IMG/VR virus record: IMGVR_UViG_2529292883_000003
Location: 1 to 17,115 of that record
Strand: one strand, 5' to 3'
From: a virus
Lineage: Duplodnaviria; Heunggongvirae; Uroviricota; Caudoviricetes
DNA: 17,115 bases
The position numbers were made by a program, and so were the translations under genes. The notes beneath the pieces were generated by a model. It saw only the letters and a list, made by a program, of their open reading frames with translations. It made no database searches and was not told where the DNA came from. Within the stretch, counting starts at the first letter, position 1, and each line of letters begins with the position of its first letter. Of the stretch, positions 483-15,584 are shown piece after piece.

Positions 483-638
483 TTACTCCCCAAGTTCGTA
501 AGCTGTGAAGACAGCGACCTCCGTCTGGTCGGTTCGGATTCGTACCTCGCAGAGGTCTTTCCTCGTTACCAGTACCGTCACTATAACGATTAAACAGATG
601 ACGATCAGGGTGATTAACATCGCCTTTTGCTGCTTCAT
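483..638 (-). CDS. hok: Hok/Gef family type I toxin (HokD/RelF-like), 51 aa
   Basis: MKQQKAMLITLIVICLIVIVTVLVTRKDLCEVRIRTDQTEVAVFTAYELGE: one hydrophobic helix followed by the conserved RKxLCE..R....EVA.F.AYE Hok/Gef signature. Start ATG at 638-636, stop TAA at 485-483. Confidence 0.85.
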   Translation of the reverse strand: MKQQKAMLITLIVICLIVIVTVLVTRKDLCEVRIRTDQTEVAVFTAYELGE

Positions 639-695
639 AGCCCGCTTCTTCTTGCCTTTCAGCACGTAAGAGACTAACCTACGTTTGTAAGGCAT
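483..695 (-). CDS. mok: Mok: N-terminally extended frame sharing the hok stop, 70 aa
   Basis: ORF-track 70-aa frame (MPYKRRLVSYVLKGKKKRA + Hok) starting 57 nt upstream of hok in the same frame, as for chromosomal mok/hok pairs. Confidence 0.6.
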   Translation of the reverse strand: MPYKRRLVSYVLKGKKKRAMKQQKAMLITLIVICLIVIVTVLVTRKDLCEVRIRTDQTEVAVFTAYELGE

Positions 696-758
696 AGATT
701 GGGCCCCAGATTAATGTTAAGCCTCTTGCCGGATGCGTAATATCAACTGGGGTTTTTT
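687..758 (+). ncRNA. sok: putative Sok antisense RNA
   Basis: Plus-strand segment antisense to the mok start region, ending in CCCCAG...CTGGGG followed by TTTTTT (753-758), which looks like an intrinsic terminator. The 5' end is placed by analogy with known hok/sok loci, not seen directly. Confidence 0.35.
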
Positions 759-1241
759 CTATCTGCCTTTGATTTTCATGCCCAAGGCAGATAGCCTCAA
801 GCCCCCGCAGCCATACTATTTAACCCCCGTTACCTCGCCAATATGAAATCAATCAGAAAGGCGATCCATAAGAACAATAGCAAGACAATAAATTGCCACC
901 ACAGCCGCAATAGCCAACGCACACTTGAGAACCAGCACGACAACCTCCTGTATTGGACGTGCACCTGCCCTGATAAATATGAGGCTGTCTCGTCAGTGAT
1001 TCAATACAACTATTGGGTATAGTTTCTGTGATTTTGTTCTGTAGAAATGGAACACAACAACCAGTCACCACCAGCACTTCTTTAAATACGCTAAGTCCGA
1101 CGCAAGCTAACCTTCTAGTCCGCTTTGAGCGAGGAGCGGACCTGACATTGGGGTATGTCAATTTATGGGAGCAGGTCAGGGGCATTAATGCCCCCATATG
1201 GAATAAGTTTCACCTTGACATTAATAATGCTCTTGGGACAA

Positions 1242-2987
1242 TCAAAAACTTTGCTTTAGTGGTACTTCTCTTGACATGTGGATACCATCTTTTGAACGCC
1301 TGCGCTCTTCAAAATAGATAGCTAATGATAAATAGATTATTGAGTTTCTAGCTAATCCAATGAGTTGCATGAGCCTTGATTCAAATTGGCTTATTGGTAT
1401 TAATAGAGAGTGGGAAGATAGTTTTTCTTTTTCATAGATCTTTGATTTTAGATCTGTAAGTCTTAAACTCATCTTATTAACACCATCTTCGAGTTGTTGC
1501 GCTAAACAATTATCCCCATCTTTTTTTGCTTGCTTCATTTTTAATTTTTCATCCCGGATTTTATCTGGTAGTACATTAACTTCTTCTTGGATCTTTCTAA
1601 ATTCACCATCATTATAAGTATTATATGATGTTGCAAGTTCATAGCCAAAATCATCAACTATTTTTAATGAACGATGTTCCATGGCATTTCTAATCTCTGC
1701 AAATGCCACTGCATTTGGATCTAACCACTTTGTTGCTGAATCAGAGTCACCAACTTTACGGATATCTTTTAATATATAGAATAAAGCGTGAATGAAATGA
1801 TTGTCGCTATCTTTCAGCTTTTTATGTGGTTTCCATTTAGTATTATTACTTGTAAAGTCACGGAATAAATTATCTATACTGATTATTTTGTCATGTTTCA
1901 GATCGTTCAAATCAAAGAAGCGACTAATTAAATATGCTACTTTATCAAAAATTGAATATACTATTCTGAATGCTGACTTATACTGAGCAATCTTCAAGTT
2001 ATTAATTGAGTAAGTCATATCCTCAACGTGTTGATATGTTGAGTTGAATATATGAGGGTTATCATCAGGTATATCTTTTGAAGAAAAAATCAAGTACCGA
2101 GCATAACAGTAATCATTTTTTAATTCATCATAATTACCGTGATAAGATAATTCTTCAGACATGGTGAGAGAACTATTAAGCGATTGAACGAATGAGGGGA
2201 ATTCGAAAACATCCTGATAAGTAATCGGGTACTCGCAAGCATCATTCAAATCATTAAGAAAGAGTCTTTTACTAGCGCACCATTCTAAATAGTTTTTCTG
2301 TTTTCTACATGTGGTTTTTTCAGTGTATTCTTTAAAGTAATCGAAGTCCGATGTTTCGAATAACTCCTCGAACCATTTTTTAAAGTTGAATAATTTGCCG
2401 CCTTTCTCAAGTGGCACTCTTTGTTCAGGATATAGTTGATCAATATTCTCAAAACCTTTTTTCACAAGTTCATAAGCGATATAGTAATGATATTCTGAAT
2501 GTCCATTATCATAAAGTGAAAGCCCAAGAAAAATTTCATTATTGGCTTTTGCTATAATTGCAACGAGATTATTATCTATAGAAATAGCTTTATCATAGTG
2601 GGGAATGCAACATAACGTTCTACCTTGTGATGAAAGGCGATTAGCTAAATTTGTCTCAATCATAGACCTAAGACTATTATATGCATGAGTATTATTATCA
2701 TGTTCTCTCCAGTCTACTTTAGGTAGCGCATGTAAAGCTTTCCTGTAAAAGATGACCGATTTCATCAAATCATCTGAATACCACTCAGTTTTACGTGTTT
2801 CATAAAGTACAGAGTAACAATTTCCTAAGCAGTAAAGATAATGAGCCTCGTCTAATTGGTGAGTAAAGGTGAAATCCCGTTCTGTAAAACTCTCTATTAA
2901 TGAAGATAAAGAAACGTGATCACCTTTGATGATGTATTCATCCGCACGTTTACTAAACTCATCAAGTTTATCTTTTTCCAATAACAA
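1242..2987 (-). CDS. hypothetical protein, 581 aa, no family recognised (island cargo)
   Basis: Long uninterrupted minus-strand ORF in AT-rich DNA. TTG start at 2987-2985 sits 5 nt after a perfect AAGGAG (plus 2993-2998 is CTCCTT). No in-frame ATG nearby. Contains an R-x4-H motif (AEIRNAMEHRS) and TPR-like helices; both are weak motif-level hints. Confidence 0.6.
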   Translation of the reverse strand: MLLEKDKLDEFSKRADEYIIKGDHVSLSSLIESFTERDFTFTHQLDEAHYLYCLGNCYSVLYETRKTEWYSDDLMKSVIFYRKALHALPKVDWREHDNNTHAYNSLRSMIETNLANRLSSQGRTLCCIPHYDKAISIDNNLVAIIAKANNEIFLGLSLYDNGHSEYHYYIAYELVKKGFENIDQLYPEQRVPLEKGGKLFNFKKWFEELFETSDFDYFKEYTEKTTCRKQKNYLEWCASKRLFLNDLNDACEYPITYQDVFEFPSFVQSLNSSLTMSEELSYHGNYDELKNDYCYARYLIFSSKDIPDDNPHIFNSTYQHVEDMTYSINNLKIAQYKSAFRIVYSIFDKVAYLISRFFDLNDLKHDKIISIDNLFRDFTSNNTKWKPHKKLKDSDNHFIHALFYILKDIRKVGDSDSATKWLDPNAVAFAEIRNAMEHRSLKIVDDFGYELATSYNTYNDGEFRKIQEEVNVLPDKIRDEKLKMKQAKKDGDNCLAQQLEDGVNKMSLRLTDLKSKIYEKEKLSSHSLLIPISQFESRLMQLIGLARNSIIYLSLAIYFEERRRSKDGIHMSREVPLKQSF

Positions 2988-3212
2988 AGTGACTCCTTAA
3001 CTGTTCATACGAACTGAATGACAAGCTTCGATTTAAAACTAAACATATAAATGTACTATTTAATTATTTATTATATGTGGATTTGGTCGATAATGCTGAT
3101 CTAGTATTTAAGTTTAGGAGCATAAAAAGTGATCTACTCCTCACAATTTAACATAGCGCATGGGTTCAACTTCCGCTTCTGGCACAGGGCTGCTGTTGCA
3201 GCACTGACAACC

Positions 3213-3686
3213 TTAGACTTCAATCGATTCAGAGATCTCTAACGCATCATCGACTTCAATGCCCAGATAACGGACTGTGCTTTCCAGTTTCCTATGGCCC
3301 AACAGAAGTTGGATCACCCAAAGATTCTTGGTTTTCTTGTAGATCAGGTAAGGTTTTGTTCTTCTCATGGAGTGTGTGCTGTAAAGCGAAGCTTCGAGAC
3401 CAAGCTTTTCTACCCACCCATGAAAAATTCGGCTGTATTGCCGGGTTGATATGTGCCGGTTCGTTCCGATCCGAGACCGAAACAAGAAGTCTTTACTGTG
3501 CAAATTGCCAAGCTTTATCAATGCAGCAACAGCTTCTCTTGTCCCTTTGGTTATCTCAAATTGCACAGGGCTACCGATTTTCTGTTGCAGCACCATTACT
3601 CTGCTTGAAGCCGAGCTGCCATATGCAACATCAGATACTTTGAGGTTCACCAGATCACAGCCTCGTAGCTTACTGTCTAAGACCAT
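3213..3686 (-). pseudogene. small tyrosine recombinase (integrase family) remnant, N-terminally truncated
   Basis: 157-aa ORF with box I arginine (KLRGCDLVNLKVSDV) and the C-terminal HSMRRT...LLGHRKLESTVRY catalytic signature (R, HxxR, Y). The same frame stays open upstream to 3803 but is broken by TGA at 3746-3744, with no start codon upstream; only ~6 residues precede box I. Confidence 0.55.
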
Positions 3687-4017
3687 GTTGAACTGAGCTA
3701 AATCACGCGTTTTACCTTCCAGTTCAAGCCGGATTCGGCTCCCTCAGATATGAGATATCTGGAGTTGTCTTTTTTGGCCTATGATACGGTCTTTGTTCCA
3801 CTGTTACATGTTCATAATCAAATCTCCTGCAATGCTGGAGATTTGAGTACGGTTGTCCCTTATGAGCGAGTATTGGACATTGAGTTACTTGTATCAGGGG
3901 TGGTCAAAATATTGGCACTTAGCCATAAAGGTATTTACATCAATGATTTATGATCTTTCCTTAGCAAGATTGCTACTTTTTTGTGAAGTATGTTCATGTC
4001 AATAGTAGGTAATTAAA

Positions 4018-4047
4018 TTTACAAAATCGCGAATTAATGGTTATATA
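4018..4047 (+). promoter_or_regulatory. putative sigma70 promoter for the plus-strand island gene
   Basis: TTTACA (4018-4023), 17-nt spacer, TTATAT/TATATA (4041-4047), about 45 nt upstream of ATG 4090. By-eye match only. Confidence 0.3.
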
Positions 4048-4089
4048 TCCCCTATGGCTTGTTTTTTTAATACGAGGAATCAAACGGAT

Positions 4090-4413
4090 ATGGATAATAA
4101 TATTCTATTTATTTCATCAATTGAGCGGTTTAATGATTTCGAAGAGGTTGTTAGACGCTTTTTACAGCGAATGTTTAATGCAGATGCTTATATTACAAAT
4201 GGCCCTTATGACGGAGGCAAGGACGTCGTTTACTCAGTAAGAGGTCGTGAAATAAGAGAGGTAATACAGGTATCTATTATAAAAAAAGGTTTAGAAGATA
4301 AACTTGAAGAAGACTTAATCAAAACAGATGATTTAATTAAAAAATATAATTACCCTCCTGTATTGAATTTTTTTGGAGCCACAAAATATCTGAAAGCAAG
4401 CTTGAAGTTTTAA
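4090..4413 (+). CDS. Mrr-like (restriction-endonuclease fold) N-terminal ORF, 107 aa, probably the 5' part of a frame-disrupted gene
   Basis: MDNNILFISSIERFNDFEEVVRRFLQRMFNADAYITNGPYDGGKDVVYSVRGREIREVIQVSIIKKG... has the DGGxD core typical of Mrr-type PD-(D/E)xK nucleases. The expected Q-x-K lysine is not obvious (IQVS). GAGGAA lies 12 nt upstream of ATG 4090. The ORF-track start at 4054 is an in-frame extension. Confidence 0.5.
   Translation: MDNNILFISSIERFNDFEEVVRRFLQRMFNADAYITNGPYDGGKDVVYSVRGREIREVIQVSIIKKGLEDKLEEDLIKTDDLIKKYNYPPVLNFFGATKYLKASLKF
4368..4374 (+). repeat. T7 homopolymer at the frame junction between ORF 4090-4413 and ORF 4560-6359
   Basis: The downstream frame is open from 4350 (after TAA 4347-4349); the upstream frame closes at 4411-4413. 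The T7 run is the only homopolymer in the 4350-4410 overlap and fits the X XXY YYZ slippery pattern (T TTT TTT) in the upstream frame. Confidence 0.5.
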
Positions 4414-4559
4414 AAAGCAATGCCAGAAAAAATTATGGGATAACCCTCGAGTTTTATGACGCAAATAGAATATCTCAAAAAATCACCAATGATTATCCGG
4501 AGATATTAACCTTTCTTCTTGAGGAAGTTCACAATTATCAATCCTCTAAAAAGGATGAG

Positions 4560-6359
4560 TTGGACATAAAAGAAATAGCATTTTACGAATATCTGGTGTT
4601 AAGTAAAGATGCTGCCAATTTAAAGAATGTAATTATTGATTCATACATAGTTTCATTACTTACAGGTCAAGGGAAGTCAGAGCATGATTTAATCAATGAA
4701 ACCCAAATTCTTGGGGTACACAATGAAACTCTTAAAAATAGATTGTATCTTTTAAAGCGAGATAATCGAATTATCCTTGATGGAGATTTATACAGTCTGT
4801 CTGAGGTTGAAAGTAAGAGAATCAGGAATCTTGAGTTAAAAGAAATAGCCAAAAGGAATGAGGTTTTAACAATAATTGGTAATGCGACCTCAAAATACTT
4901 TAGTGAAAATATATCCACCGAGGTTCTTGACCTAATTAAGGAGGCTTATGCTGAGTCGGTCAATCTACAGCTTAATGAATTAAACTTCGAATCCCCAAGA
5001 AATCAAATTGTTAAAGGAATTATTAAACAACTGGAAAAATTGATAACTGAAAAAGGAAAAATAAACAACTCATTGTCTTCAAAATTAGCTAATGAGCTTG
5101 TTGAGTTATCTGGGAGAAATGAATATCTTTCAGACTATTGCTCATCAAGGCTATGCATAACTCTATTAAATCAAAAGAAACTTGAAAGATATATTGACAA
5201 TAAAACGTTTTTTTTATACCTAGATGCCCCAGTATTGATTCCATATCTTGTTGCATTAAGATACGATAAAATTTCTAACAGTGAAAAATCGATAAGCACT
5301 GTTAAAACGTTAAAGAAAATAGTATTTAACCTTAAAAACAGACACATTCGTGTAACCCAAGAACATCTTGAAGAAACAGTACGACATTTATTAAATGGAA
5401 TGAAAATTAGTTCTTTTGCCAATGATGAATTAGTTAGGAAGATAGGTAATTCTAAAAACGTATTTTTTAATACATATATAAATATTAAAAAAAGCAAACC
5501 TAGTAGTTACAATTTCGAAAATTTTTTAGAAGATTTTATTGGCTATGAAGATACATCTGGCTCTATCGATGCAAAGTTTTATAAACTAATTCGTTCAGTC
5601 TCTCAGTATTTAAATCTAAATAGAATTGAAGTTATTTCAACCTCAGTTTATCAGGAAGATAGAATCATTGAGGAAGTTGCCAGGAAGTTTTCTAGGCAAA
5701 TATCTGGTCCAAAAAAAAGAAATCCACGAACTATTAATAATGATATTTATGCTGCATTAACCTTATCTGATGACAGCATACACTGCGATGAAAAGGGAGT
5801 CGGTCAAATCCCTATGCTAATTACATGGGATGCAACTCAGCACACACTCAGGAATATAGTAAGACAAAAAGATAAATATAAAGAATGGTTGGTTTACACT
5901 CCCCAAAGAGCAATTGAAAGACTTTCAATGTTAGAAATGAAAATTGAGAGCTCCGCAATTAAAGATGGTGTTTTAGCAATTATTGATGAGGATTATTTCT
6001 TCAAGGAAAACGATTCAAATTTAATCGATACTCTGGCATTGCTAGTGAAAGATGATTCCCCTGACGCTGGCGCATTAACAACTTTGATAAATAAACTATC
6101 GCAAAGGGTAACCGAGGAGTCTTTAGATTCTCAAGATATTGAAAAAGAAGCATTCAATACTTTAAACGAGATTTTAGTATTTACTTACACTGAGTTTAAA
6201 GATAATTTTAGCCAGGTAAAAATTGTTTTCAGTGATGAAAAATATACCGACTCAATCTTTGAGATACTAACCTCAACACTTAAGCGACCTTTCGATGATT
6301 CTTCTAGAATAGAGTATAAAAATAAAATAGACGAAATAATTTCAGTTCACTTTGGTTGA
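4560..6359 (+). CDS. hypothetical protein, 599 aa as called (TTG start); likely C-terminal part of a ~755-aa nuclease-domain fusion
   Basis: Long ORF in AT-rich DNA. Its frame has no ATG, GTG or TTG between 4350 and the TTG at 4560, and no internal Met for ~275 codons. Weak AAGGA 4 nt before the TTG. No family recognised. Confidence 0.55.
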   Translation: MDIKEIAFYEYLVLSKDAANLKNVIIDSYIVSLLTGQGKSEHDLINETQILGVHNETLKNRLYLLKRDNRIILDGDLYSLSEVESKRIRNLELKEIAKRNEVLTIIGNATSKYFSENISTEVLDLIKEAYAESVNLQLNELNFESPRNQIVKGIIKQLEKLITEKGKINNSLSSKLANELVELSGRNEYLSDYCSSRLCITLLNQKKLERYIDNKTFFLYLDAPVLIPYLVALRYDKISNSEKSISTVKTLKKIVFNLKNRHIRVTQEHLEETVRHLLNGMKISSFANDELVRKIGNSKNVFFNTYINIKKSKPSSYNFENFLEDFIGYEDTSGSIDAKFYKLIRSVSQYLNLNRIEVISTSVYQEDRIIEEVARKFSRQISGPKKRNPRTINNDIYAALTLSDDSIHCDEKGVGQIPMLITWDATQHTLRNIVRQKDKYKEWLVYTPQRAIERLSMLEMKIESSAIKDGVLAIIDEDYFFKENDSNLIDTLALLVKDDSPDAGALTTLINKLSQRVTEESLDSQDIEKEAFNTLNEILVFTYTEFKDNFSQVKIVFSDEKYTDSIFEILTSTLKRPFDDSSRIEYKNKIDEIISVHFG

Positions 6360-6519
6360 CTGTTTGGGGAGAGGGTTCTCCCCAATTAAAGAACTTATTA
6401 ACAATATCGATAAAGTTGTGAACTGTTCCCCATGGATTGATGCAGATAGGTGCTATCAACATCCGCCTTTGGCACAAAGCGGACAACCACGCTAGCTCTA
6501 CCGACATGGCTTTTCCCAT
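6304..6519 (-). CDS. hypothetical small ORF immediately downstream of ydaV (ydaW position), C-terminus runs into the island boundary
   Basis: 71-aa ORF-track frame (MGKAMSVELAWLSALCQRRMLIAPICINPWGTVHNFIDIVNK...). The first ~45 codons lie in normal-GC DNA, the tail reads through the boundary hairpin. No convincing SD. Confidence 0.25.
   Translation of the reverse strand: MGKAMSVELAWLSALCQRRMLIAPICINPWGTVHNFIDIVNKFFNWGEPSPQTVNQSELKLFRLFYFYTLF
6364..6385 (+). terminator. hairpin just after the 599-aa ORF stop (possible terminator / island boundary)
   Basis: TTGGGGAGA-GGGT-TCTCCCCAA: 9-bp stem with 4-nt loop, 5 nt after TGA 6357-6359. No U-tract follows on either strand, so terminator function is uncertain. 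Confidence 0.3.
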
Positions 6520-6572
6520 TGCTTTAAGTGCGTCAAAAAACAGTCTCCATTAAAATTTCCTCCCGATAAAAA

Positions 6573-7319
6573 TTACTTCGCAGTTCCTGGCTGGACGACA
6601 TTCGGACGCCAGCTCTCCCAGTTAAAATTCACCCAGCGTCCGCCGTTCATGGTCATGCGATCCATAATCCGCTCGCCGAGCAATGTTTTCATCGCCTCAT
6701 AGTTCAGGTTTGTCAGCATTCCCACGCCGCGCATCGACGCTGTCCGGCGATCAACAATCTGGTGCAGTACCACCTGCTCGTTTTTCGTATCGCGCTGAAT
6801 ACCAATTTCATCAAGAACCAGCAGATCAACTTCGCACAGTTCCCGCAAAAATTTTTCGCCTGACTGCCCGTCGTCATAGCTGGCGTGCAGGGCGCTCATA
6901 ACATCAGCCACGGTAACCACAATCACTGTCTGACCGTCTTTCAGCAGGCGATTCCCGATAGCCGCCGCCAGATGGTTTTTTCCGGTACCAGGTTTTCCAC
7001 TGAACGCAAAATTTGTACACCCGACCATCAGTTCATCGGCGATGAATTTCGCCTGGCTCAACGCGTATCGCTGACCGTCGTTCTGCACCTGGTAATTCGA
7101 AAACGAGCATTTGCGGTGCAATGGCTGGATGCCAGAGCGATTCAGAATTTTTTCCACCCGCAACTGACGATTCTGACGGTTGATCTCCTCACAACGTTTC
7201 TGGCCTTCGGAAAGTTGCCACTCACGCCACTCCGCCACCGTCTTGAATGGCGCGGTTACATGTGACGGGGCCAGTCTGCGGATACGTTCAAGAACGCCGC
7301 CTGTCGCAATATTTTTCAT
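6573..7319 (-). CDS. ydaV: Rac prophage replication protein, DnaC/IstB-like helicase loader
   Basis: 248 aa; Walker A GKPGTGKNHLAAAIG; recognised as YdaV; SD-like GGGGG upstream of ATG 7319. Confidence 0.85.
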   Translation of the reverse strand: MKNIATGGVLERIRRLAPSHVTAPFKTVAEWREWQLSEGQKRCEEINRQNRQLRVEKILNRSGIQPLHRKCSFSNYQVQNDGQRYALSQAKFIADELMVGCTNFAFSGKPGTGKNHLAAAIGNRLLKDGQTVIVVTVADVMSALHASYDDGQSGEKFLRELCEVDLLVLDEIGIQRDTKNEQVVLHQIVDRRTASMRGVGMLTNLNYEAMKTLLGERIMDRMTMNGGRWVNFNWESWRPNVVQPGTAK

Positions 7320-7325
7320 GGTCAG

Positions 7326-8183
7326 TTACCCCCTGAAGCCTGGTGGGATCGCACTGTCCGGTAACGAAACGGTGTTAACCCGTCGGAGTAACGTCTCAGG
7401 TCGAACACCTTTCGGCGCGAACAAGCCCTGGTATTCGTTGGCGATGCTGTGTCGAATCACCTGCTCAGGTGAAAAACCCTGCTGGCGGAATTTTTCCAGC
7501 TCCCGTATCGCCCCGTTAGCGCCCTGCTCCGTTCGAATCGGTTTACGCAATGCCTGGCGAAATTCAACCCACTCACGCCAAAGCGAGAAAGAAATCCAGT
7601 TCGGCAAAGCAATATCCAGAGGGTCAAACTTTTTGATACCTAGATTCCCCCGGGGGGGATTTAGGGGGGGATCTGTTTTTAGATCTTTATCTGTATCTTT
7701 ATTAGTTGCCTTTGTGTTGACATCATGTTCAAACACCACTTCAACATCTGTTTGAACACCTGTTAAATTTCTCTCTTGTTTTGTTTGAACAACTGCTTCC
7801 TTTCTGCTTCTTCTGGCCTGAACAGATGCTTTTCCTGCGGCTGATTTTTTGGTTAATTTTTCCCTGACTGATGCCAGATCTTCCTCAATCCGAAGATGCA
7901 CCCATTCCTCGCCGTTATCGCAAAAAAACTCCTGCAAGGATGGTTCAACATCAGCCCATCGCTCGTTAGTCAGACGGGCAATTTTTGCCAGCCTGTTTTT
8001 AGGTATTGGCTTTCCTGTTTGCCAGTAATTGAACATCAGCAACAAATACGCACCATGCTCCTCTGCTGACAAATGCATGGTGTCAGCCAGGTAATCAGCT
8101 ATGTACAGTTGCATGTATGGTAATGCGGCCATAATTGCCCCGTATGATGCTGCCCGGTGGCTTAGAATAAGCACAAACAGCAT
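7326..8183 (-). CDS. ydaU: Rac prophage replication initiation protein (O-like)
   Basis: 285 aa, recognised as YdaU; stops 6 nt before the ydaV start (operon). Confidence 0.8.
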   Translation of the reverse strand: MLFVLILSHRAASYGAIMAALPYMQLYIADYLADTMHLSAEEHGAYLLLMFNYWQTGKPIPKNRLAKIARLTNERWADVEPSLQEFFCDNGEEWVHLRIEEDLASVREKLTKKSAAGKASVQARRSRKEAVVQTKQERNLTGVQTDVEVVFEHDVNTKATNKDTDKDLKTDPPLNPPRGNLGIKKFDPLDIALPNWISFSLWREWVEFRQALRKPIRTEQGANGAIRELEKFRQQGFSPEQVIRHSIANEYQGLFAPKGVRPETLLRRVNTVSLPDSAIPPGFRG

Positions 8184-8195
8184 GGAAACTTTTGC

Positions 8196-8618
8196 TTAAT
8201 GAACAATGACAGAATCGTCGGAAGACCCGCCGCCGCTGAAATGCGCTTTCCGGTAAACGGCCTGGACTGCATCATCATGCGCATCAATTGCCGTACTTAA
8301 CGCTTCCTGCGCCGCCAGTAATGCACGGCGTTCCAGGGTATCGAAGATGCAGAGTCGGTGACGCAGCTCGCGCGGAAGGATTGCCAGAATTGCAGGGATC
8401 AGTTTCTGAATTTTTTCCCTTTGCGCTTCCGTTTCACCTTTTAACCAACGGTGATAGATGTTCTGCTGATTATTCCAGTCCTTGCCTGGTACCAGGGGCA
8501 ATTCGCCGCCCCCCTGGCGCAGATATTCTTCAGTAATGGCATTGGCTACCCATGCCTGCCCTTTTTCGGCTGCCAGGGCTAACAACACTGACTCGATGTG
8601 CTCATGCTTGATTTTCAT
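8196..8618 (-). CDS. ydaT: Rac prophage protein YdaT
   Basis: 140 aa (MKIKHEHIESVLLALAAEKGQAWVANAITEEY...); start overlaps the ydaS stop (ATGA). Confidence 0.8.
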   Translation of the reverse strand: MKIKHEHIESVLLALAAEKGQAWVANAITEEYLRQGGGELPLVPGKDWNNQQNIYHRWLKGETEAQREKIQKLIPAILAILPRELRHRLCIFDTLERRALLAAQEALSTAIDAHDDAVQAVYRKAHFSGGGSSDDSVIVH

Positions 8619-8869
8619 GAATCAACTCCCATCAGCTTTTTCGTAGTAGTTTTATTTCTGCCAATAGTTAAAATTACATCGGCAGAAAATAATCCGTTTG
8701 ATGCATGAGCGATTTTTTCAGCGTAATTTGTTTCGCCGGTATATTCTGTGCGAGGCAATTTTCCGTTATCCATCCATTTGTAGATTGCTCTTTGGCTGAC
8801 ACCACAAATGTCGGCCACAACAGAAACGCGAACAGTTTTGATTACATCTTCAAGTGTTTTCTGGTTCAT
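8615..8869 (-). CDS. ydaS: Cro-like HTH regulator
   Basis: MNQKTLEDVIKTVRVSVVADICGVSQRAIYKWMDNGKLPRTEY... with an HTH. Start at ATG 8869-8867 chosen because GAGGGTGA precedes it; the ORF-track start at 8941 would lie 8 nt from the divergent racR start. Confidence 0.7.
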   Translation of the reverse strand: MNQKTLEDVIKTVRVSVVADICGVSQRAIYKWMDNGKLPRTEYTGETNYAEKIAHASNGLFSADVILTIGRNKTTTKKLMGVDS

Positions 8870-8948
8870 ATCACCCTCACAATGTGAACTTTGAGTACAT
8901 GCTATAACAGAACTGACAGTACATTCAAGAGCGAATATCATTGAACTT
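8870..8948. promoter_or_regulatory. divergent racR/ydaS promoter-operator region (OR-like)
   Basis: 79-bp gap between divergent starts containing two direct copies of GAACTnnnAGTACAT (8886-8900 and 8910-8924), 24 bp apart. Confidence 0.45.
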
Positions 8949-9368
8949 ATGGTTCATGAAGATAAAGCGCGTAAAGAGTTCGCCAGTAGGCTTGCGCTAG
9001 CCTGTGAAAACGCTGGTTATGAACAACATGGAAGGCAGGCAGAAATTGCCCGTCGAATGAAATTAACACCAAAAGCGGTTAGCAAATGGTTTAATGGCGA
9101 AACAATTCCTCGCCGAGAGAAATTAAGGGAATTAGCAACACTCATTGGAACAACACCAACCTATCTTTTGGGAGAGGATACAGAAGAAAGTGGACAGGTA
9201 CGTTTCTATCAGGAGTTAAATCCAAGACAAAAAATCATCATTGACCTTCTGGACGAGCTCCCTGACAGTGAGACAGATGAACTTTTAAAAACTCTTGAGG
9301 AGAAAAAACAGAAGTACAATGCAATTTACGAAGAGTTAGCACGAAAGAAAAAACAAAAAGCCTCTTAA
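8949..9368 (+). CDS. racR: prophage repressor, CI-like HTH protein
   Basis: 139-aa ORF divergent from ydaS with an HTH (LTPKAVSKWFNGETIP). Position matches racR; length differs from what I remember for K-12, so the allele may differ. Confidence 0.65.
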   Translation: MVHEDKARKEFASRLALACENAGYEQHGRQAEIARRMKLTPKAVSKWFNGETIPRREKLRELATLIGTTPTYLLGEDTEESGQVRFYQELNPRQKIIIDLLDELPDSETDELLKTLEEKKQKYNAIYEELARKKKQKAS

Positions 9369-9439
9369 ACCAGCATAAATCCGGTAGCGCCCCCCTCCGG
9401 GTTTGTGCTTCACTTTATCCCATCTCATTTTTTTACACA

Positions 9440-9490
9440 CAAAATGTACTTAAAGTACTTTACATCAATGAACACAAAGTACATCATATA
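9440..9490. promoter_or_regulatory. OL-like operator/promoter region downstream of racR
   Basis: ATGTACT (9444-9450, inverse of AGTACAT), 10-bp palindrome AAAGTACTTT (9452-9461) and AGTACAT (9478-9484): the same core as in the racR/ydaS gap. Confidence 0.35.
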
Positions 9491-9658
9491 CCTACCAACC
9501 CACCCCGCCCCACAGAACGCAGGGCAATACTTCGAGTTACCAGGCAGTGGTCAGGGGTTAAGTAGCCAGCCCGAGGCGTATGAACATGACGGCAGGGTTC
9601 AGATTTTGCAGTGCAGCAGGTTTCAGTTCCGCCACCCGGCGTTAAGGGGAGAGATAAG

Positions 9659-9793
9659 ATGGTGCATTACGAAGTAGTTCAGTATTTGATGGATTGTTGC
9701 GGTATCACTTACAACCAGGCTGTGCAGGCTTTACGCAGCAACGACTGGGATCTCTGGCAGGCAGAAGTCGCTATACGTAGCAACAAGATGTGA
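9659..9793 (+). CDS. ydaG: Rac prophage small protein YdaG, 44 aa
   Basis: MVHYEVVQYLMDCCGITYNQAVQALRSNDWDLWQAEVAIRSNKM preceded by GGGGAGAG; the ORF-track start at 9611 is an in-frame extension. Confidence 0.7.
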   Translation: MVHYEVVQYLMDCCGITYNQAVQALRSNDWDLWQAEVAIRSNKM

Positions 9794-9803
9794 GATTCGC
9801 AAA

Positions 9804-9959
9804 ATGCAAAAAATCGACCTCGGCAACAACGAATCCCTGGTGTGCGGCGTGTTCCCCAACCAGGATGGAACGTTCACTGCCATGACGTATACCAAAAGCA
9901 AAACATTTAAAACCGAAACTGGTGCGCGCCGATGGTTGGAGAAGCACACAGTAAGCTAA
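9804..9959 (+). CDS. ydaF: Rac prophage small protein YdaF, 51 aa
   Basis: MQKIDLGNNESLVCGVFPNQDGTFTAMTYTKSKTFKTETGARRWLEKHTVS; below the ORF-track length cut-off; stop overlaps the sieB stop by 4 nt (convergent). Confidence 0.65.
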   Translation: MQKIDLGNNESLVCGVFPNQDGTFTAMTYTKSKTFKTETGARRWLEKHTVS

Positions 9960-10444
9960 CGATTAAAACGTCTACTCCTGCTGTTCCAGAATAACTTCAT
10001 AAAATGGGAGTATTTTTCGGTGACGAGATAATAAGAACAGTTTGCGCTATCACTCTGATGTTGAATGATGCCCTTCCGTTCTAATTTTTTCATAACCGGG
10101 TTACGGCAAGGAGAAGTGATAATAAGATTTCCTGTTTTAAGGAAATCTTTAAATACAGCGATTTCTTTCTCAGATAAACGAAGCAATACTCGTTGCTCTG
10201 GTAGTAATGAATAATGCTTTTGAATATGTGCTCGCCATCTTGAGAAGGAAATGGCGACCACGAAAGAAAAGGCAAAAACGATAATCTGAAAGAGCCAAGG
10301 TATTTCAGTATAAGCATTGAATGCGACAGTAAACTCTTTCGGTATCAGCCAGAGAGTGAGACCAAAAATGATAATCGTATACATAAGTCTTTCGAGTGGC
10401 TCGTTAGCAAAAAGTTTCAACAATGGAGTAAATACATCCAACAT
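9956..10444 (-). CDS. sieB: superinfection exclusion protein B
   Basis: 162 aa from internal Met (MLDVFTPLLKLFANEPLERLMYTIIIFGLTLWLIPKEF...), membrane helices; the ORF-track frame is N-terminally over-extended. Confidence 0.8.
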   Translation of the reverse strand: MLDVFTPLLKLFANEPLERLMYTIIIFGLTLWLIPKEFTVAFNAYTEIPWLFQIIVFAFSFVVAISFSRWRAHIQKHYSLLPEQRVLLRLSEKEIAVFKDFLKTGNLIITSPCRNPVMKKLERKGIIQHQSDSANCSYYLVTEKYSHFMKLFWNSRSRRFNR

Positions 10445-10885
10445 ATCAATAACTCTCAACTGTAAGGGTATTGAAATGTTAACACAAGCTCTCGCTGTAG
10501 GGGTATAGCCGAGACCACCGAAGCCCGGAGGTGGTGAAATAAAACCGGGCACAACACGAAGGCGCATTTCCGATATCCATAAAGAGTCGGTCTTGTCTGT
10601 TAAATTTAAATGGTGGGAGTGCGCCTCCGGTTGTAAATAACGACATTGCTGTGTGTAGTCCTGGCGGCATCAGTTTTTTTCTTGAAGTTCGGCTGATGTC
10701 CGCCCTTTTTAAAGTGAATTTTGTGATGCGGTGAATGCGGCTAAGCGCACGTGGCACAGTTAAAAGTCATGTTAGTCCTTATTGGTTTGGGGGGGAAAGC
10801 CGACTGTAATTGTTAACTGGTTGCAGTCACCTGGAGGCACCAGGCACCGCATCAACAAAGTTCATTTGTAAAAATGGAGATAATT

Positions 10886-11107
10886 ATGATTGCACATCAC
10901 TTCGGAACTGATGAAATACCACGTCAGTGTGTGACTCCTGGCGATTATGTTCTTCATGAAGGCCGGACATATATTGCCTCGGCAAACAATATTAAAAAGC
11001 GAAAACTATATATTCGTAACCTGGCCACAAAAACATGCATTACTGACCGCATGATTAAAGTCTTCCTCGGTCGTGATGGGTTACCTGTAAAGGCGGAGTC
11101 ATGGTGA
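10886..11107 (+). CDS. kilR: Kil-like inhibitor of cell division
   Basis: 73 aa ([42 protein letters not shown]...), GGAGA 6 nt upstream of ATG 10886. Confidence 0.8.
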
Positions 11108-11277
11108 TGACTAAGAAAATAAAATGTGCTTACCACCTTTGCAAAAAAGACGTTGAAGAAAGCAAAGCTATTGAAAGAATGCTTCACTTCATGCACGGGA
11201 TTTTATCAAAAGACGAACCGAGAAAATATTGCAGTGAAGCTTGTGCCGAAAAAGACCAGATGGCACATGAACTTTAA
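11107..11277 (+). CDS. ydaE: small Cys-rich protein YdaE, 56 aa
   Basis: [56 protein letters not shown]; ATG overlaps the kilR stop (TGATG); below the ORF-track cut-off. Confidence 0.7.
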   Translation: MTKKIKCAYHLCKKDVEESKAIERMLHFMHGILSKDEPRKYCSEACAEKDQMAHEL

Positions 11278-11351
11278 TTAATTGACTATTCGAAACTGAA
11301 TTTATGCCAGAAATGGCAGGTATTCGCTCAACCTTAATTAAGGAGAAAAAC

Positions 11352-11627
11352 ATGATTACCAATTATGAAGCCACTGTTGTAACTACCGATGACATTGTTC
11401 ACGAGGTGAATCTGGAAGGAAAGCGCATTGGCTACGTAATTAAAACAGAAAATAAAGAAACCCCATTCACTGTGGTTGATATCGATGGTCCATCAGGCAA
11501 CGTAAAAACACTTGATGAAGGTGTCAAAAAAATGTGCCTGGTGCATATCGGAAAGAATCTGCCCGCAGAAAAAAAAGCCGAATTTCTGGCAACTCTAATT
11601 GCAATGAAATTAAAAGGTGAAATCTGA
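11352..11627 (+). CDS. racC: Rac prophage protein RacC, 91 aa
   Basis: MITNYEATVVTTDDIVHEVNLEGKRIGYVIKTENKETPF...; AGGAG 6 nt upstream of ATG 11352. Confidence 0.8.
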   Translation: MITNYEATVVTTDDIVHEVNLEGKRIGYVIKTENKETPFTVVDIDGPSGNVKTLDEGVKKMCLVHIGKNLPAEKKAEFLATLIAMKLKGEI

Positions 11628-11634
11628 AAGAAAT

Positions 11635-11655
11635 AGCCTGCGTATGGCGCAGGCT
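11635..11655 (+). other. stem-loop between racC and recE
   Basis: AGCCTGCG-TATGG-CGCAGGCT: perfect 8-bp stem, 5-nt loop, no U-tract. Confidence 0.35.
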
Positions 11656-11728
11656 ATGAACAGTGTGTATCCGGCAAGATCATTCACTGAACAAAACGAA
11701 TTTTAATCTGAGTTGAGGTTAAAAAACA

Positions 11729-14329
11729 ATGAGCACAAAACCACTCTTCCTGTTACGGAAAGCGAAAAAATCATCCGGTGAACCTGACGTCGTCCTGTGG
11801 GCAAGCAACGATTTTGAATCGACCTGTGCCACTCTGGACTACCTGATCGTTAAGTCAGGTAAAAAACTGAGCAGCTATTTTAAAGCTGTTGCCACGAATT
11901 TTCCTGTCGTTAATGACCTGCCCGCTGAAGGTGAGATCGATTTTACCTGGAGTGAACGCTATCAACTCAGCAAAGACTCCATGACATGGGAACTAAAACC
12001 GGGAGCAGCACCAGACAACGCTCACTATCAAGGCAATACCAACGTCAACGGCGAAGACATGACTGAGATTGAGGAGAATATGCTACTCCCAATTTCTGGC
12101 CAGGAACTGCCCATTCGTTGGCTTGCTCAACACGGCAGCGAAAAACCGGTAACGCACGTTTCACGCGACGGACTCCAGGCATTACACATTGCTCGGGCTG
12201 AAGAACTACCGGCTGTTACTGCCCTGGCTGTTTCCCACAAAACCAGCCTGCTCGACCCGCTGGAAATTCGCGAACTCCACAAACTGGTTCGTGACACTGA
12301 CAAAGTTTTCCCTAATCCTGGTAATTCAAACCTGGGACTGATAACTGCTTTTTTCGAAGCATACCTGAACGCTGACTACACCGATCGAGGACTGCTGACA
12401 AAAGAGTGGATGAAGGGTAATCGTGTTTCACACATCACTCGCACGGCTTCCGGTGCTAATGCTGGCGGCGGAAACCTCACCGATCGCGGCGAAGGTTTCG
12501 TACACGATCTGACGTCACTGGCGCGCGACGTAGCCACTGGCGTACTGGCCCGTTCAATGGATCTGGACATCTATAACCTTCATCCGGCACACGCTAAACG
12601 CATTGAGGAAATTATCGCTGAAAATAAACCGCCCTTTTCTGTTTTCCGCGACAAATTCATCACCATGCCTGGCGGGCTGGATTATTCCCGCGCCATCGTG
12701 GTTGCGTCCGTAAAAGAAGCACCAATTGGGATCGAGGTCATCCCCGCGCACGTCACTGAATATCTGAACAAAGTACTGACTGAAACCGATCATGCCAACC
12801 CTGATCCGGAAATCGTGGATATTGCCTGCGGTCGCTCCTCTGCCCCGATGCCGCAGCGAGTAACAGAAGAAGGAAAACAGGATGATGAAGAAAAACCGCA
12901 ACCATCTGGAACAACGGCAGTTGAACAGGGAGAGGCTGAAACAATGGAACCGGACGCAACTGAACATCATCAGGACACGCAGCCGCTGGATGCTCAGTCA
13001 CAGGTAAATTCTGTTGATGCGAAATATCAGGAACTGCGGGCAGAACTCCATGAAGCCCGGAAAAACATTCCATCAAAAAATCCTGTCGATGCCGATAAAT
13101 TGCTTGCAGCATCACGTGGTGAATTTGTTGACGGAATTAGCGACCCGAACGATCCGAAATGGGTAAACGGGATCCAGACTCGCGATTGTGTGTACCAGAA
13201 CCAGCCAGAAACGGAAAAAACCAGACCAGATATGAATCAACCTGAGCCAGTAGTGCAACAGGAACCGGAAATAGCCTGCAATGCCTGCGGCCAGACTGGC
13301 GGGGATAACTGCCCTGACTGTGGTGCGGTGATGGGCGACGCAACATACCAGGAAACATTCGATGAAGAGAGTCAGGTTGAAGCTAAGGAAAATGATCCGG
13401 AGGAAATGGAAGGCGCTGAACATCCGCACAATGAGAATGCTGGCAGCGATCCGCATCGCGATTGCAGTGATGAAACTGGCGAAGTCGCAGATCCCGTAAT
13501 CGTAGAAGACATAGAGCCAGGTATTTATTACGGAATTTCGAATGAGAATTACCACGCGGGTCCCGGTGTCAGTAAGTCTCAGCTCGATGACATTGCTGAT
13601 ACTCCGGCACTATATTTGTGGCGTAAAAATGCCCCCGTGGACACCACAAAGACAAAAACGCTCGATTTAGGAACCGCTTTCCACTGCCGGGTACTTGAAC
13701 CGGAAGAATTCAGTAACCGCTTTATCGTAGCACCTGAATTTAACCGCCGTACAAACGCCGGAAAAGAAGAAGAGAAAGCGTTTCTGATGGAATGCGCAAG
13801 CACAGGAAAAACAGTTATCACTGCGGAAGAAGGCCGGAAAATTGAACTCATGTATCAAAGCGTTATGGCTTTGCCGCTGGGGCAATGGCTTGTTGAAAGC
13901 GCCGGACACGCTGAATCATCAATTTACTGGGAAGATCCTGAAACAGGAATTTTGTGTCGGTGCCGTCCGGACAAAATTATCCCTGAATTTCACTGGATCA
14001 TGGACGTGAAAACTACGGCGGATATTCAACGATTCAAAACCGCTTATTACGACTACCGCTATCACGTTCAGGATGCATTCTACAGTGACGGTTATGAAGC
14101 ACAGTTTGGAGTGCAGCCAACTTTCGTTTTTCTGGTTGCCAGCACAACTATTGAATGCGGACGTTATCCGGTTGAAATTTTCATGATGGGCGAAGAAGCA
14201 AAACTGGCAGGTCAACAGGAATATCACCGCAATCTGCGAACCCTGTCTGACTGCCTGAATACCGATGAATGGCCAGCTATTAAGACATTATCACTGCCCC
14301 GCTGGGCTAAGGAATATGCAAATGACTAA
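11729..14329 (+). CDS. recE: exodeoxyribonuclease VIII (RecE)
   Basis: 866-aa ORF recognised as RecE ([41 protein letters not shown]...); GAGG upstream; stop overlaps the recT start. Confidence 0.9.
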
Positions 14330-15187: not shown

Positions 15188-15382
15188 ATGAGATATGACA
15201 ATGTTAAACCATGTCCATTTTGTGGTTGTCCATCAGTAACGGTGAAAGCCATTTCAGGATATTACCGAGCGAAGTGTAACGGATGCGAATCCCGAACCGG
15301 TTATGGTGGAAGTGAAAAAGAAGCACTCGAAAGATGGAATAAACGAACCACTGGAAATAATAATGGAGGTGTTCATGTATAA
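15188..15382 (+). CDS. ralR: restriction alleviation protein Lar/RalR, 64 aa
   Basis: MRYDNVKPCPFCGCPSVTVKAISGYYRAKCNGCESRTGYGGSEKEALERWNKRTTGNNNGGVHV, Cys-rich. Confidence 0.8.
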   Translation: MRYDNVKPCPFCGCPSVTVKAISGYYRAKCNGCESRTGYGGSEKEALERWNKRTTGNNNGGVHV

Positions 15383-15584
15383 AATTACCGCCACTATTGA
15401 AAAGGAAGGTGGCACTCCTACTAACTGGACAAGATATTCAAAATCTAAACTAACGAAATCAGAATGCGAAAAAATGCTCTCAGGTAAAAAAGAAGCAGGC
15501 GTTTCCAGAGAGCAGAAAGTAAAACTGATAAATTTTAATTGCGAGAAACTTCAGTCCTCGAGAATTGCATTGTATTCAAATTAA
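15375..15584 (+). CDS. ydaC: Rac prophage protein YdaC, 69 aa
   Basis: MYKITATIEKEGGTPTNWTRYSKSKLTKSECEKMLSGKKEAG...; ATG overlaps the ralR 3' end. Confidence 0.7.
   Translation: MYKITATIEKEGGTPTNWTRYSKSKLTKSECEKMLSGKKEAGVSREQKVKLINFNCEKLQSSRIALYSN

Follow-up and report, generated by a model that had tools for sequence, protein, structure and literature searches.

A Rac-type prophage of Escherichia coli or Shigella very probably carries an HK022-type immunity cassette with five operator sites

The IMG/VR virus record IMGVR_UViG_2529292883_000003, analyzed over its whole 17,115 nucleotides (the window), holds a Rac-type prophage located at ttcA in a non-K-12 Escherichia coli or Shigella strain. 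Its gene set comprises intR, xisR, ralR, recT, recE, racC, ydaE, kilR, ydaF and ydaG and, further along, ydaT, ydaU and ydaV, with a pair of regulator genes placed between ydaT and ydaG as in the Rac prophage of strain K-12. An earlier annotation made from the letters of the window (the sequence-only reading) named this pair racR and ydaS and saw in the AGTACAT repeats on both sides of the repressor gene the operators of a lambda-like switch. The regulator genes and their surroundings are as follows.

8625-9492 (868 bp): swapped immunity cassette, made up of the cro-like gene, the right operator (OR), the repressor gene and the left operator with the leftward promoter (OL/PL); non-homologous to K-12 Rac
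8615-8869, minus strand: Cro-like gene, 84 amino acids (aa), with the Shine-Dalgarno sequence GAGGGTG; RefSeq calls the same coordinates in L001
8949-9368, plus strand: repressor gene, 139 aa, with an N-terminal HK022-CI-like helix-turn-helix (aa 1 to ~78)
9216-9365 (repressor aa ~90-139): C-terminal DicA/Gifsy-type helical domain, sequence LNPRQKIIIDLLDELPDSETDELLKTLEEKKQKYNAIYEEL
8196-8618, minus strand: ydaT, the CII-analogue gene, in the Rac backbone outside the swapped cassette

AGTACAT occurs six times on the two strands of the 17.1-kb window against 1.52 copies expected, and four of the six lie within 8894-9484. The sequence-only reading had located the repeats accurately (GAACTTTGAGTACAT at 8886-8900, GAACTGACAGTACAT at 8910-8924, ATGTACT at 9444-9450, AAAGTACTTT at 9452-9461 and AGTACAT at 9478-9484) and had judged four 7-mers in 600 bp to be above chance, rightly so: no run among 1000 first-order Markov simulations of the window reached four copies of AGTACAT/ATGTACT per 600 bp, and only four runs reached three. 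Five operator sites inside 600 bp, as defined below, were likewise seen in 0 of 1000 simulations, and a chance origin of the repeats is ruled out by these simulations and by shuffles. A relaxed search with the earlier 15-mer added a third copy, GAACACAAAGTACAT, at 9470-9484 and a reverse-strand copy at 9444-9458.

The true repeat unit is a 15-bp dyad, TGWAC-N5-GTWCA, of which AGTACAT is only a part, namely the right half-site GTACA extended by a single base at either end; the GAAC of the earlier repeat is the left half-site of the same dyad. The AGTACAT copies are thus real, but neither the 7-mer nor the direct 15-mer GAACTnnnAGTACAT is the functional unit, and the 10-bp palindrome AAAGTACTTT (9452-9461), which had been set apart as an element of its own, consists of the right half of one dyad (OL2) and the first two bases of the PL -35 hexamer. 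One operator, OR3, was overlooked since it is built from two GTTCA-type halves; it lacks AGTACAT. With no more than one mismatch allowed, TGWAC-N5-GTWCA finds five sites in 8885-9483, against 1.77 expected across the whole window, and selects exactly the five sites below plus one stray. In this list PR and PRM are the rightward promoter and the promoter of the repressor gene, and L003 is the HK022 locus used for comparison.

OR1, 8885-8899: TGAACTTTGAGTACA, exact match to the pattern; positional homologue of the HK022 oR at L003 430-444; covers the start region and leader of the rightward (cro-side) promoter
OR2, 8909-8923: AGAACTGACAGTACA, one mismatch to the pattern; homologue of the HK022 oR GGAACTGATAGTACA at L003 454-468; fills the PR spacer and includes the PRM -35 hexamer
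OR3, 8942-8956: TGAACTTATGGTTCA, identical to the HK022 oR3 at L003 487-501
OL2, 9445-9459: TGTACTTAAAGTACT, homologue of the HK022 oL TGTACTATTGGTACT at L003 1262-1276
OL1, 9469-9483: TGAACACAAAGTACA, exact match to the pattern; homologue of the HK022 oL TGAACTTTAAGTACA at L003 1286-1300; occupies the PL spacer as far as the -10 hexamer

The central bases of OR3 include the repressor start codon (ATG 8949-8951), and OL2 adjoins the PL -35 hexamer, the deviant final T of the site being the first base of that hexamer. The stray match, TGAACGCTGACTACA, lies inside recE (12366-12380) and is taken as chance because K-12 recE has the same site (positions 736-750 of the K-12 Rac locus, L002).

These sites correspond one for one to the immunity region of phage HK022 (GenBank X16093 features; Carlson and Little 1993, as cited in PMC8053113), whose GenBank record, like that of HK75, carries three oR, two oL, pR and pL features, annotated in HK022 since 1989. 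The window and HK022 share the 15-bp dyad, the OR steps of 24 and 33 bp, the 24-bp step from OL1 to OL2, the offsets of -57, -33 and 0 from the repressor ATG, and an OR3 of identical sequence lying on the cI ATG; the HK022 OR1 also reads TGAACTTATGGTTCA, the same letters as HK022 OR3 and window OR3. Both regulators have HK022 homologs: the Cro-like protein matches HK022 Cro at 60% identity over 73 aa (E 3e-34), and repressor residues 4-102 are 47% identical to HK022 CI (99 aa, E 6e-32), with a nearly unchanged recognition helix (TPKAVSKWFNGE in the repressor, TPKAISKWFNGE in HK022 CI). This site-for-site agreement upholds the part of the sequence-only reading that placed OR- and OL-type operators around the repressor gene of a CI/Cro-type switch.

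The arrangement is kept in relatives. We compared 14 loci from seven genera (E. coli among those covered), all carrying relatives of the repressor DNA-binding domain: HK022, HK75, Tritos, a Rac-like prophage record, Shigella, two Salmonella prophages, Raoultella, two metagenomic contigs, and Klebsiella, Citrobacter and Providencia phages. A contig scan with the repressor contributed a single locus (Shigella flexneri), the relatives being otherwise reached through protein matches and phage records. In 14/14 loci OR is made up of three sites whose starts are 24 and 33 bp apart; the center of OR1 falls at position -57 relative to the repressor ATG in every locus examined, and that of OR3 exactly on the conserved ATG in all 14. 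The OL1-OL2 pair shows its 24-bp step in all 12 loci whose sequence extends to OL, OL2 is conserved in 10 loci, and the distance between OR and OL ranges from ~500 to ~2450 bp. Among 32 distinct site sequences, positions 2, 4, 5, 11, 12 and 14 are invariant (G, A, C / G, T, C) and the central five positions carry only 0.2-0.85 bit, which is the pattern to be expected of an operator for a dimeric helix-turn-helix protein. The sequence-only reading had offered conservation in related prophages as a way to judge its proposal, and with the motif kept in 14 loci the operators stand. Of 5426 complete E. coli genomes, 1041 contain the 91-bp OR region, 831 of them at ≥99% identity.

Comparison with K-12 by blastn places the boundaries of the cassette. 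The window matches K-12 Rac at 6491-8624 (96.9%) and at 9493-13115 (99.5%) with no match between, and since similarity stops at both edges, we regard the 868 bp as exchanged. The exchanged stretch begins at the cro-like stop codon and ends shortly beyond the promoter downstream of the repressor gene, an extent that is the classical unit of lambdoid immunity. Among phage records, blastn finds the cassette at 98-99% in Rac-like prophage records and in phage Tritos, and at ~71% identity in the cI-cro region of HK022 and its relative HK75. Further matches at 98.6% are to vB_EcoS-666R9 "phages", which were described in a study that located phages in the genomes of clinical isolates and do not demonstrate that the cassette functions in an active phage. 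We consider it very likely that the AGTACAT repeats are half-sites and flanks of five 15-bp operators, three in OR and two in OL, and that an HK022-type immunity cassette has taken the place of racR-ydaS in a Rac-type prophage, these two statements standing together.

Three promoter-like sites accompany the operators. A consensus scan of 8560-9700 returned exactly two on the plus strand, PRM and PL.

9459-9487, plus strand: PL-like promoter, TTTACA-17-CATCAT, found by the scan; predicted to drive ydaG, ydaF, kilR, recET and downstream genes
8913-8941, plus strand: PRM-like promoter, CTGACA-17-TATCAT, found by the scan with 10/12 matches
8901-8928, minus strand: PR-like promoter, -35 TTGAAT (8928-8923), 16-bp spacer, -10 TATAGC (8906-8901)

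The PL hexamers are identical to those of the annotated HK022 pL, and TTTACA is invariant in 11 loci. The PR-like promoter, which would serve the cro-like/ydaT/ydaU/ydaV operon, is the positional homologue of the annotated HK022 pR (TTGACT-16-CATAAT) and is assigned by homology only, because it falls below the scan threshold; an alternative -10, TAGCAT at 8904-8899, would give an 18-bp spacer. Transcription from PRM is predicted to begin at or beside the first base of the repressor start codon (8949) and so to yield a leaderless mRNA. A TAnnnT hexamer at -13 to -8 from the ATG, without a Shine-Dalgarno sequence, is found in 11 of 11 non-identical loci (as TATCAT, TATAGT, TATAAT, TATACT, TATGAT, TACAAT or TATTAT), the place of the Shine-Dalgarno sequence being taken by the left half of OR3. 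The conserved hexamer and this absence together suggest that the repressor is made from a leaderless mRNA. Transcripts of this kind have been demonstrated for two other repressor genes, paaR2 of CP-933P (PMC8630535) and K-12 racR (PMC9638921).

The repressor departs from HK022 CI in its C-terminal part. HK022 CI has a LexA-like S24 domain with an Ala-Gly cleavage site, whereas in the alignment of the two proteins the S24 part is missing from the window repressor and a 60-aa helical tail stands in its stead; Pfam finds HTH_3 only and no S24 peptidase domain in the repressor. Relatives of the N-terminal domain accordingly come in a long form of 235-240 aa with Peptidase_S24 (HK022, Raoultella, Klebsiella, Providencia and others) and a short form (138-151 aa) that lacks this domain, as in the window, E. 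coli, Shigella and Salmonella. The AlphaFold model, with a predicted local distance difference test score (pLDDT) of 82, has a five-helix DNA-binding domain, a disordered linker (77-87) and C-terminal helices at 92-103 and 106-138. When the last 63 residues were searched against 1.84 billion representative proteins, ~40 clusters of proteins of 120-185 aa, DicA among them, were found to share the tail, approximately PRxxILLxLFxxLPxSExxxLLxxLEEKKxxYdxl, behind very different helix-turn-helix domains. The C-terminal helical domain is thus a widespread module, although no Pfam model covers it. The NCBIfam DicA model matches the repressor with E 2e-15 over profile positions 20-132 of 135, at 56.8 bits, which is under the curated cut-off of 101, and the repressor is 29% identical to K-12 DicA over 112 aa including the tail (BLASTP E 5e-15, aa 30-137).

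Other relationships were sought for the tail and set aside. Homology of the C-terminal part to RacR was rejected, hhalign aligning the helix-turn-helix only; a sequence search for a solved structure of the C-terminal domain gave only the DNA-binding domains of P22 C2 and 434-type proteins; and Foldseek returned generic Xre matches, with full-length resemblance to SinR, an arbitrium-system repressor and a Salmonella phage repressor reaching template modeling (TM) scores of only ~0.4, too weak to use. The protein is best viewed as a hybrid in which an HK022-type DNA-binding domain carries a tail of the DicA/Gifsy type. DicA, from Qin, and the Gifsy repressors GfoR, GtgR and GfhR resemble it in size (~135-140 aa), in having neither an Ala-Gly site nor an S24 domain and in their homologous C-terminal domain, and differ in DNA-binding specificity; they are not cleaved in the SOS response and are displaced from DNA by the small antirepressors GfoA, GftA and Rem (PMC3121763, PMC10448788).

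In the switch that we propose, dimers of the 139-aa repressor on OR1 and OR2, 24 bp apart, would turn off PR and with it the cro-like gene, ydaT and the replication genes, and dimers on OL1 and OL2, also 24 bp apart, would turn off PL and with it ydaG, ydaF, kilR and recET. The 24-bp step is the spacing of lambda's cooperating operator sites. Binding at OR3, over the start codon and the predicted leaderless PRM start point, would let the repressor limit its own synthesis, and the 84-aa Cro-like protein is expected at the same sites for the opposite, lytic state. We infer both the binding and this order of occupancy from the HK022 homologies and the conserved layout. OR and OL, ~550 bp apart, could be bridged by a loop, which would have to form through a C-terminal domain unlike that of HK022 CI. 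The DicA/Gifsy-type tail stands in place of a LexA-like autoprotease, and no cleavage is therefore expected on RecA activation; if the repressor is inactivated at all, a trans-acting antirepressor would be the likely agent. YdaT may play a CII-like part, as is described for its counterparts in K-12 and CP-933P (PMC11879457, PMC9986795). The window protein is 98% identical to K-12 YdaT, carries the Pfam domain YdaT_toxin and belongs to PHROG 163 ("CII-like"). A perfect YdaT box, TTGATTTTCATGAATCAA, occupies 8608-8625, exactly where the cassette starts on its left side, and takes in both the ydaT start codon and the cro-like stop codon; the published YdaT recognition site, which it matches, is TTGATT-N6-AATCAA (PMC9986795, PMC11879457).

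Several points weigh against this proposal. The -10 hexamer of PR is weak in either form (TATAGC or TAGCAT), and the promoter scores under the consensus-scan threshold. The PRM -35 lies inside OR2 and OR3 lies on the transcription and translation start, so lambda-style activation from OR2, and thus positive autoregulation, is unlikely; repressor at OR2 should compete with polymerase and not activate it as in lambda. The HK022 site OFR (GGTACTAAAAGTACA, L003 163-177, downstream of cro) and HK022 OL3 are without counterpart, no site with ≤2 mismatches being found in the corresponding places of the window, whose cassette ends at the cro-like stop codon, unlike HK022 with its OFR beyond cro. A LexA box and an antirepressor candidate were sought in the window and neither was found. 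HK022 CI is reported to bind adjacent operators cooperatively and to loop OL to OR (PMC8053113), but since the C-terminal domain of the window repressor is unlike that of HK022 CI, cooperativity and looping are not simply transferable. What the sequence itself establishes is the sites with their spacing and conservation, the protein homologies and the cassette boundaries; all functional statements about the cassette rest on homology and conservation.

We think it unlikely that the region is a decaying HK022-like remnant whose sites are no longer used in a cryptic prophage. To the left of ydaV the window prophage carries cargo and a broken integrase-like gene, neither an antirepressor nor a LexA box was found in it, and the PR -10 is weaker than in relatives, all of which would suit decay. 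Both regulator open reading frames (ORFs) are nevertheless intact, the OR region recurs in the 1041 E. coli genomes mentioned above, mostly near-identical, and the half-sites are invariant where the spacers drift. The downstream genes kilR and ydaT are toxic when derepressed in K-12 (PMC5700373, PMC11879457), and repression should therefore stay under selection.

It is very improbable that the locus is a K-12-type racR/ydaS region, with AGTACAT or the direct 15-mer as its unit and the RacR and YdaS results directly applicable. It does share its place with the K-12 pair, being flanked by ydaT and ydaG in a Rac-type prophage, and PMC9638921 describes an analogous layout in K-12, where the intergenic region holds three operators, the third of them covering the ATG, and the promoter is leaderless. 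At the sequence level this identification is already refuted. The 139-aa repressor shares with K-12 RacR only 12 of 33 residues, in the helix-turn-helix only (the one part aligned by hhalign, at a probability of 31%), and its 84-aa partner shares 6 of 18 residues with YdaS; neither matches the NCBIfam RacR equivalog NF049929, and RefSeq gives neither the name racR nor ydaS to what are relatives of HK022 CI and Cro. The published RacR operator, (T/A)TAGGC-N3-GCCTA(T/A) (PMC9638921), has no match in the window at ≤2 mismatches against five in K-12 Rac, so that the K-12 racR literature cited by the sequence-only reading does not apply here. The cassette has no DNA similarity to K-12, and OR3 lacks AGTACAT, yet it is the best-conserved site. 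Just as improbable is a main binder other than the adjacent repressor, such as the CII analogue YdaT or a host factor, for although K-12 YdaT binds inside the racR-ydaS intergenic region (PMC11879457), its recognition sequence occurs here once, at 8608-8625, outside OR and OL, the near-identity of YdaT in K-12 and the window contrasts with motifs that differ completely, and the motif moves with CI and Cro into non-Rac phages that lack ydaT (HK022 and a Klebsiella phage).

With five HK022-type operators as the preferred account, the two closest systems can be set beside the window. From HK022 it differs, besides the repressor tail, in its downstream partner (YdaT in place of cII), in its PL operon, which is Rac-type (ydaG, ydaF, kilR, recET) where HK022 has nun/put, and in the distance between OR and OL (~550 bp, against ~830 bp in HK022). 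We infer homoimmunity with HK022 from the near-identical recognition helix and half-sites. With K-12 Rac it shares the prophage backbone, the insertion site, a short repressor (in the window predicted to be non-cleavable), a nearly identical YdaT, a set of three intergenic operators whose third member covers the ATG, and a dyad pair at PL; the repressor promoter, leaderless in K-12, is predicted to be so in the window too. The repressors and Cro-like proteins of the two are, however, unrelated beyond the helix-turn-helix, and the operators differ, those of the window (TGWAC-N5-GTWCA) being absent from the K-12 switch region; the two prophages are therefore expected to be heteroimmune. In MG1655 Rac (L002 3630-3669), the RacR-type dyads ATAGGTAATGCCTAA and ATAGGCTATGCCTAA flank TTGACA-17-TATAGT between racR and ydaG, and this pair is the OL/PL of K-12 Rac; excerpts of the RacR papers describe three operators only, in the racR-ydaS gap. 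Because K-12 Rac has its own three and two dyads at the same positions, absent from the window, the operators evidently change together with the repressor.

CP-933P, a Rac-like prophage of E. coli O157:H7, resembles the window in its CI/Cro/CII-like circuit (PaaR2/YdaS/YdaT), for which footprinting and reporter fusions have demonstrated OR, OL, PR, PL and a leaderless PRM (PMC8630535); its operators are repeats of the consensus GTTTAGTAA, and its repressor gene heads a toxin-antitoxin operon. Lambda has the same divergent PR and PRM on a tripartite operator and a second operator set at PL beyond the repressor gene. Its sites are 17 bp long against 15 bp here, and its OL has three sites (OL1-3) against two; the window further differs from lambda in having OR3 on the transcription and translation start, OR2 over the PRM -35 and no domain for RecA-dependent cleavage.

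Some observations concern the relatives and the rest of the window. In the Salmonella relatives a HigB-toxin/HigA-like helix-turn-helix pair (L008 2553-3220, L009 2588-3255), and in the Raoultella relative a 480-aa AAA ATPase (L010 2808-4250), is inserted between the repressor gene and OL; these genes occupy the place of lambda rexAB, and the OL pair is kept beyond them. Two database calls, P0015 (151 aa; L009 2001-2456) and P0021 (240 aa; L010 2001-2723), begin upstream of the conserved Met-Val-His-Glu, and as the center of OR3 marks the likely true ATG, their N-termini look over-extended. An Rfam search of 8600-9700 gave no match to an RNA element, and the fold of the PL leader (9494-9660) was not better than shuffles (z = +1.27). 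Elsewhere in the window two Rfam matches scored above the gathering threshold, the sok antitoxin RNA at 633-806 (minus strand), beside a Hok/Gef gene in the relative L016, and RalA, the small RNA antitoxin of RalR, at 15381-15559 (minus strand). The cargo left of ydaV (1242-6359, by comparison with L016) holds a gene for an LA2681-family HEPN protein, an integrase-like pseudogene and a large hypothetical gene, which is one 756-aa coding sequence in L016 and is seemingly split in the window (ORFs 4054-4413 and 4560-6359). A sieB-like ORF at 9956-10567 (minus strand) is readable for 203 aa from its first ATG against 162 aa annotated for K-12 sieB.

The region is an ordinary lambda-style genetic switch and adds no new principle; a CI/Cro/CII reading of Rac-like immunity regions has been published for K-12 Rac and CP-933P (PMC5917428, PMC8630535, PMC9638921). 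Our literature search found no paper on this cassette or its hybrid repressor. What the analysis provides is the correction of an annotation trap and a testable map of operators and promoters for a common E. coli cassette. As many Rac-type prophages carry a heteroimmune cassette, results for K-12 RacR and YdaS are not transferable by position alone. The combination of an HK022-like DNA-binding domain with a DicA/Gifsy tail predicts HK022-type cross-immunity and an induction independent of RecA-mediated cleavage. More tentatively, and as a possibility on which we would not insist, one operator code, TGWAC-N5-GTWCA, may be read by two classes of repressor, the SOS-cleavable S24 CI proteins and the non-cleavable DicA/Gifsy-tailed ones, of which the latter would confer a standing, SOS-proof immunity against phages of HK022 immunity in a prophage that answers only to a trans-acting antirepressor. 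If so, the non-cleavable form would be carried by Rac-like prophages in about one-fifth of complete E. coli genomes, and the antirepressor might be encoded by another prophage.

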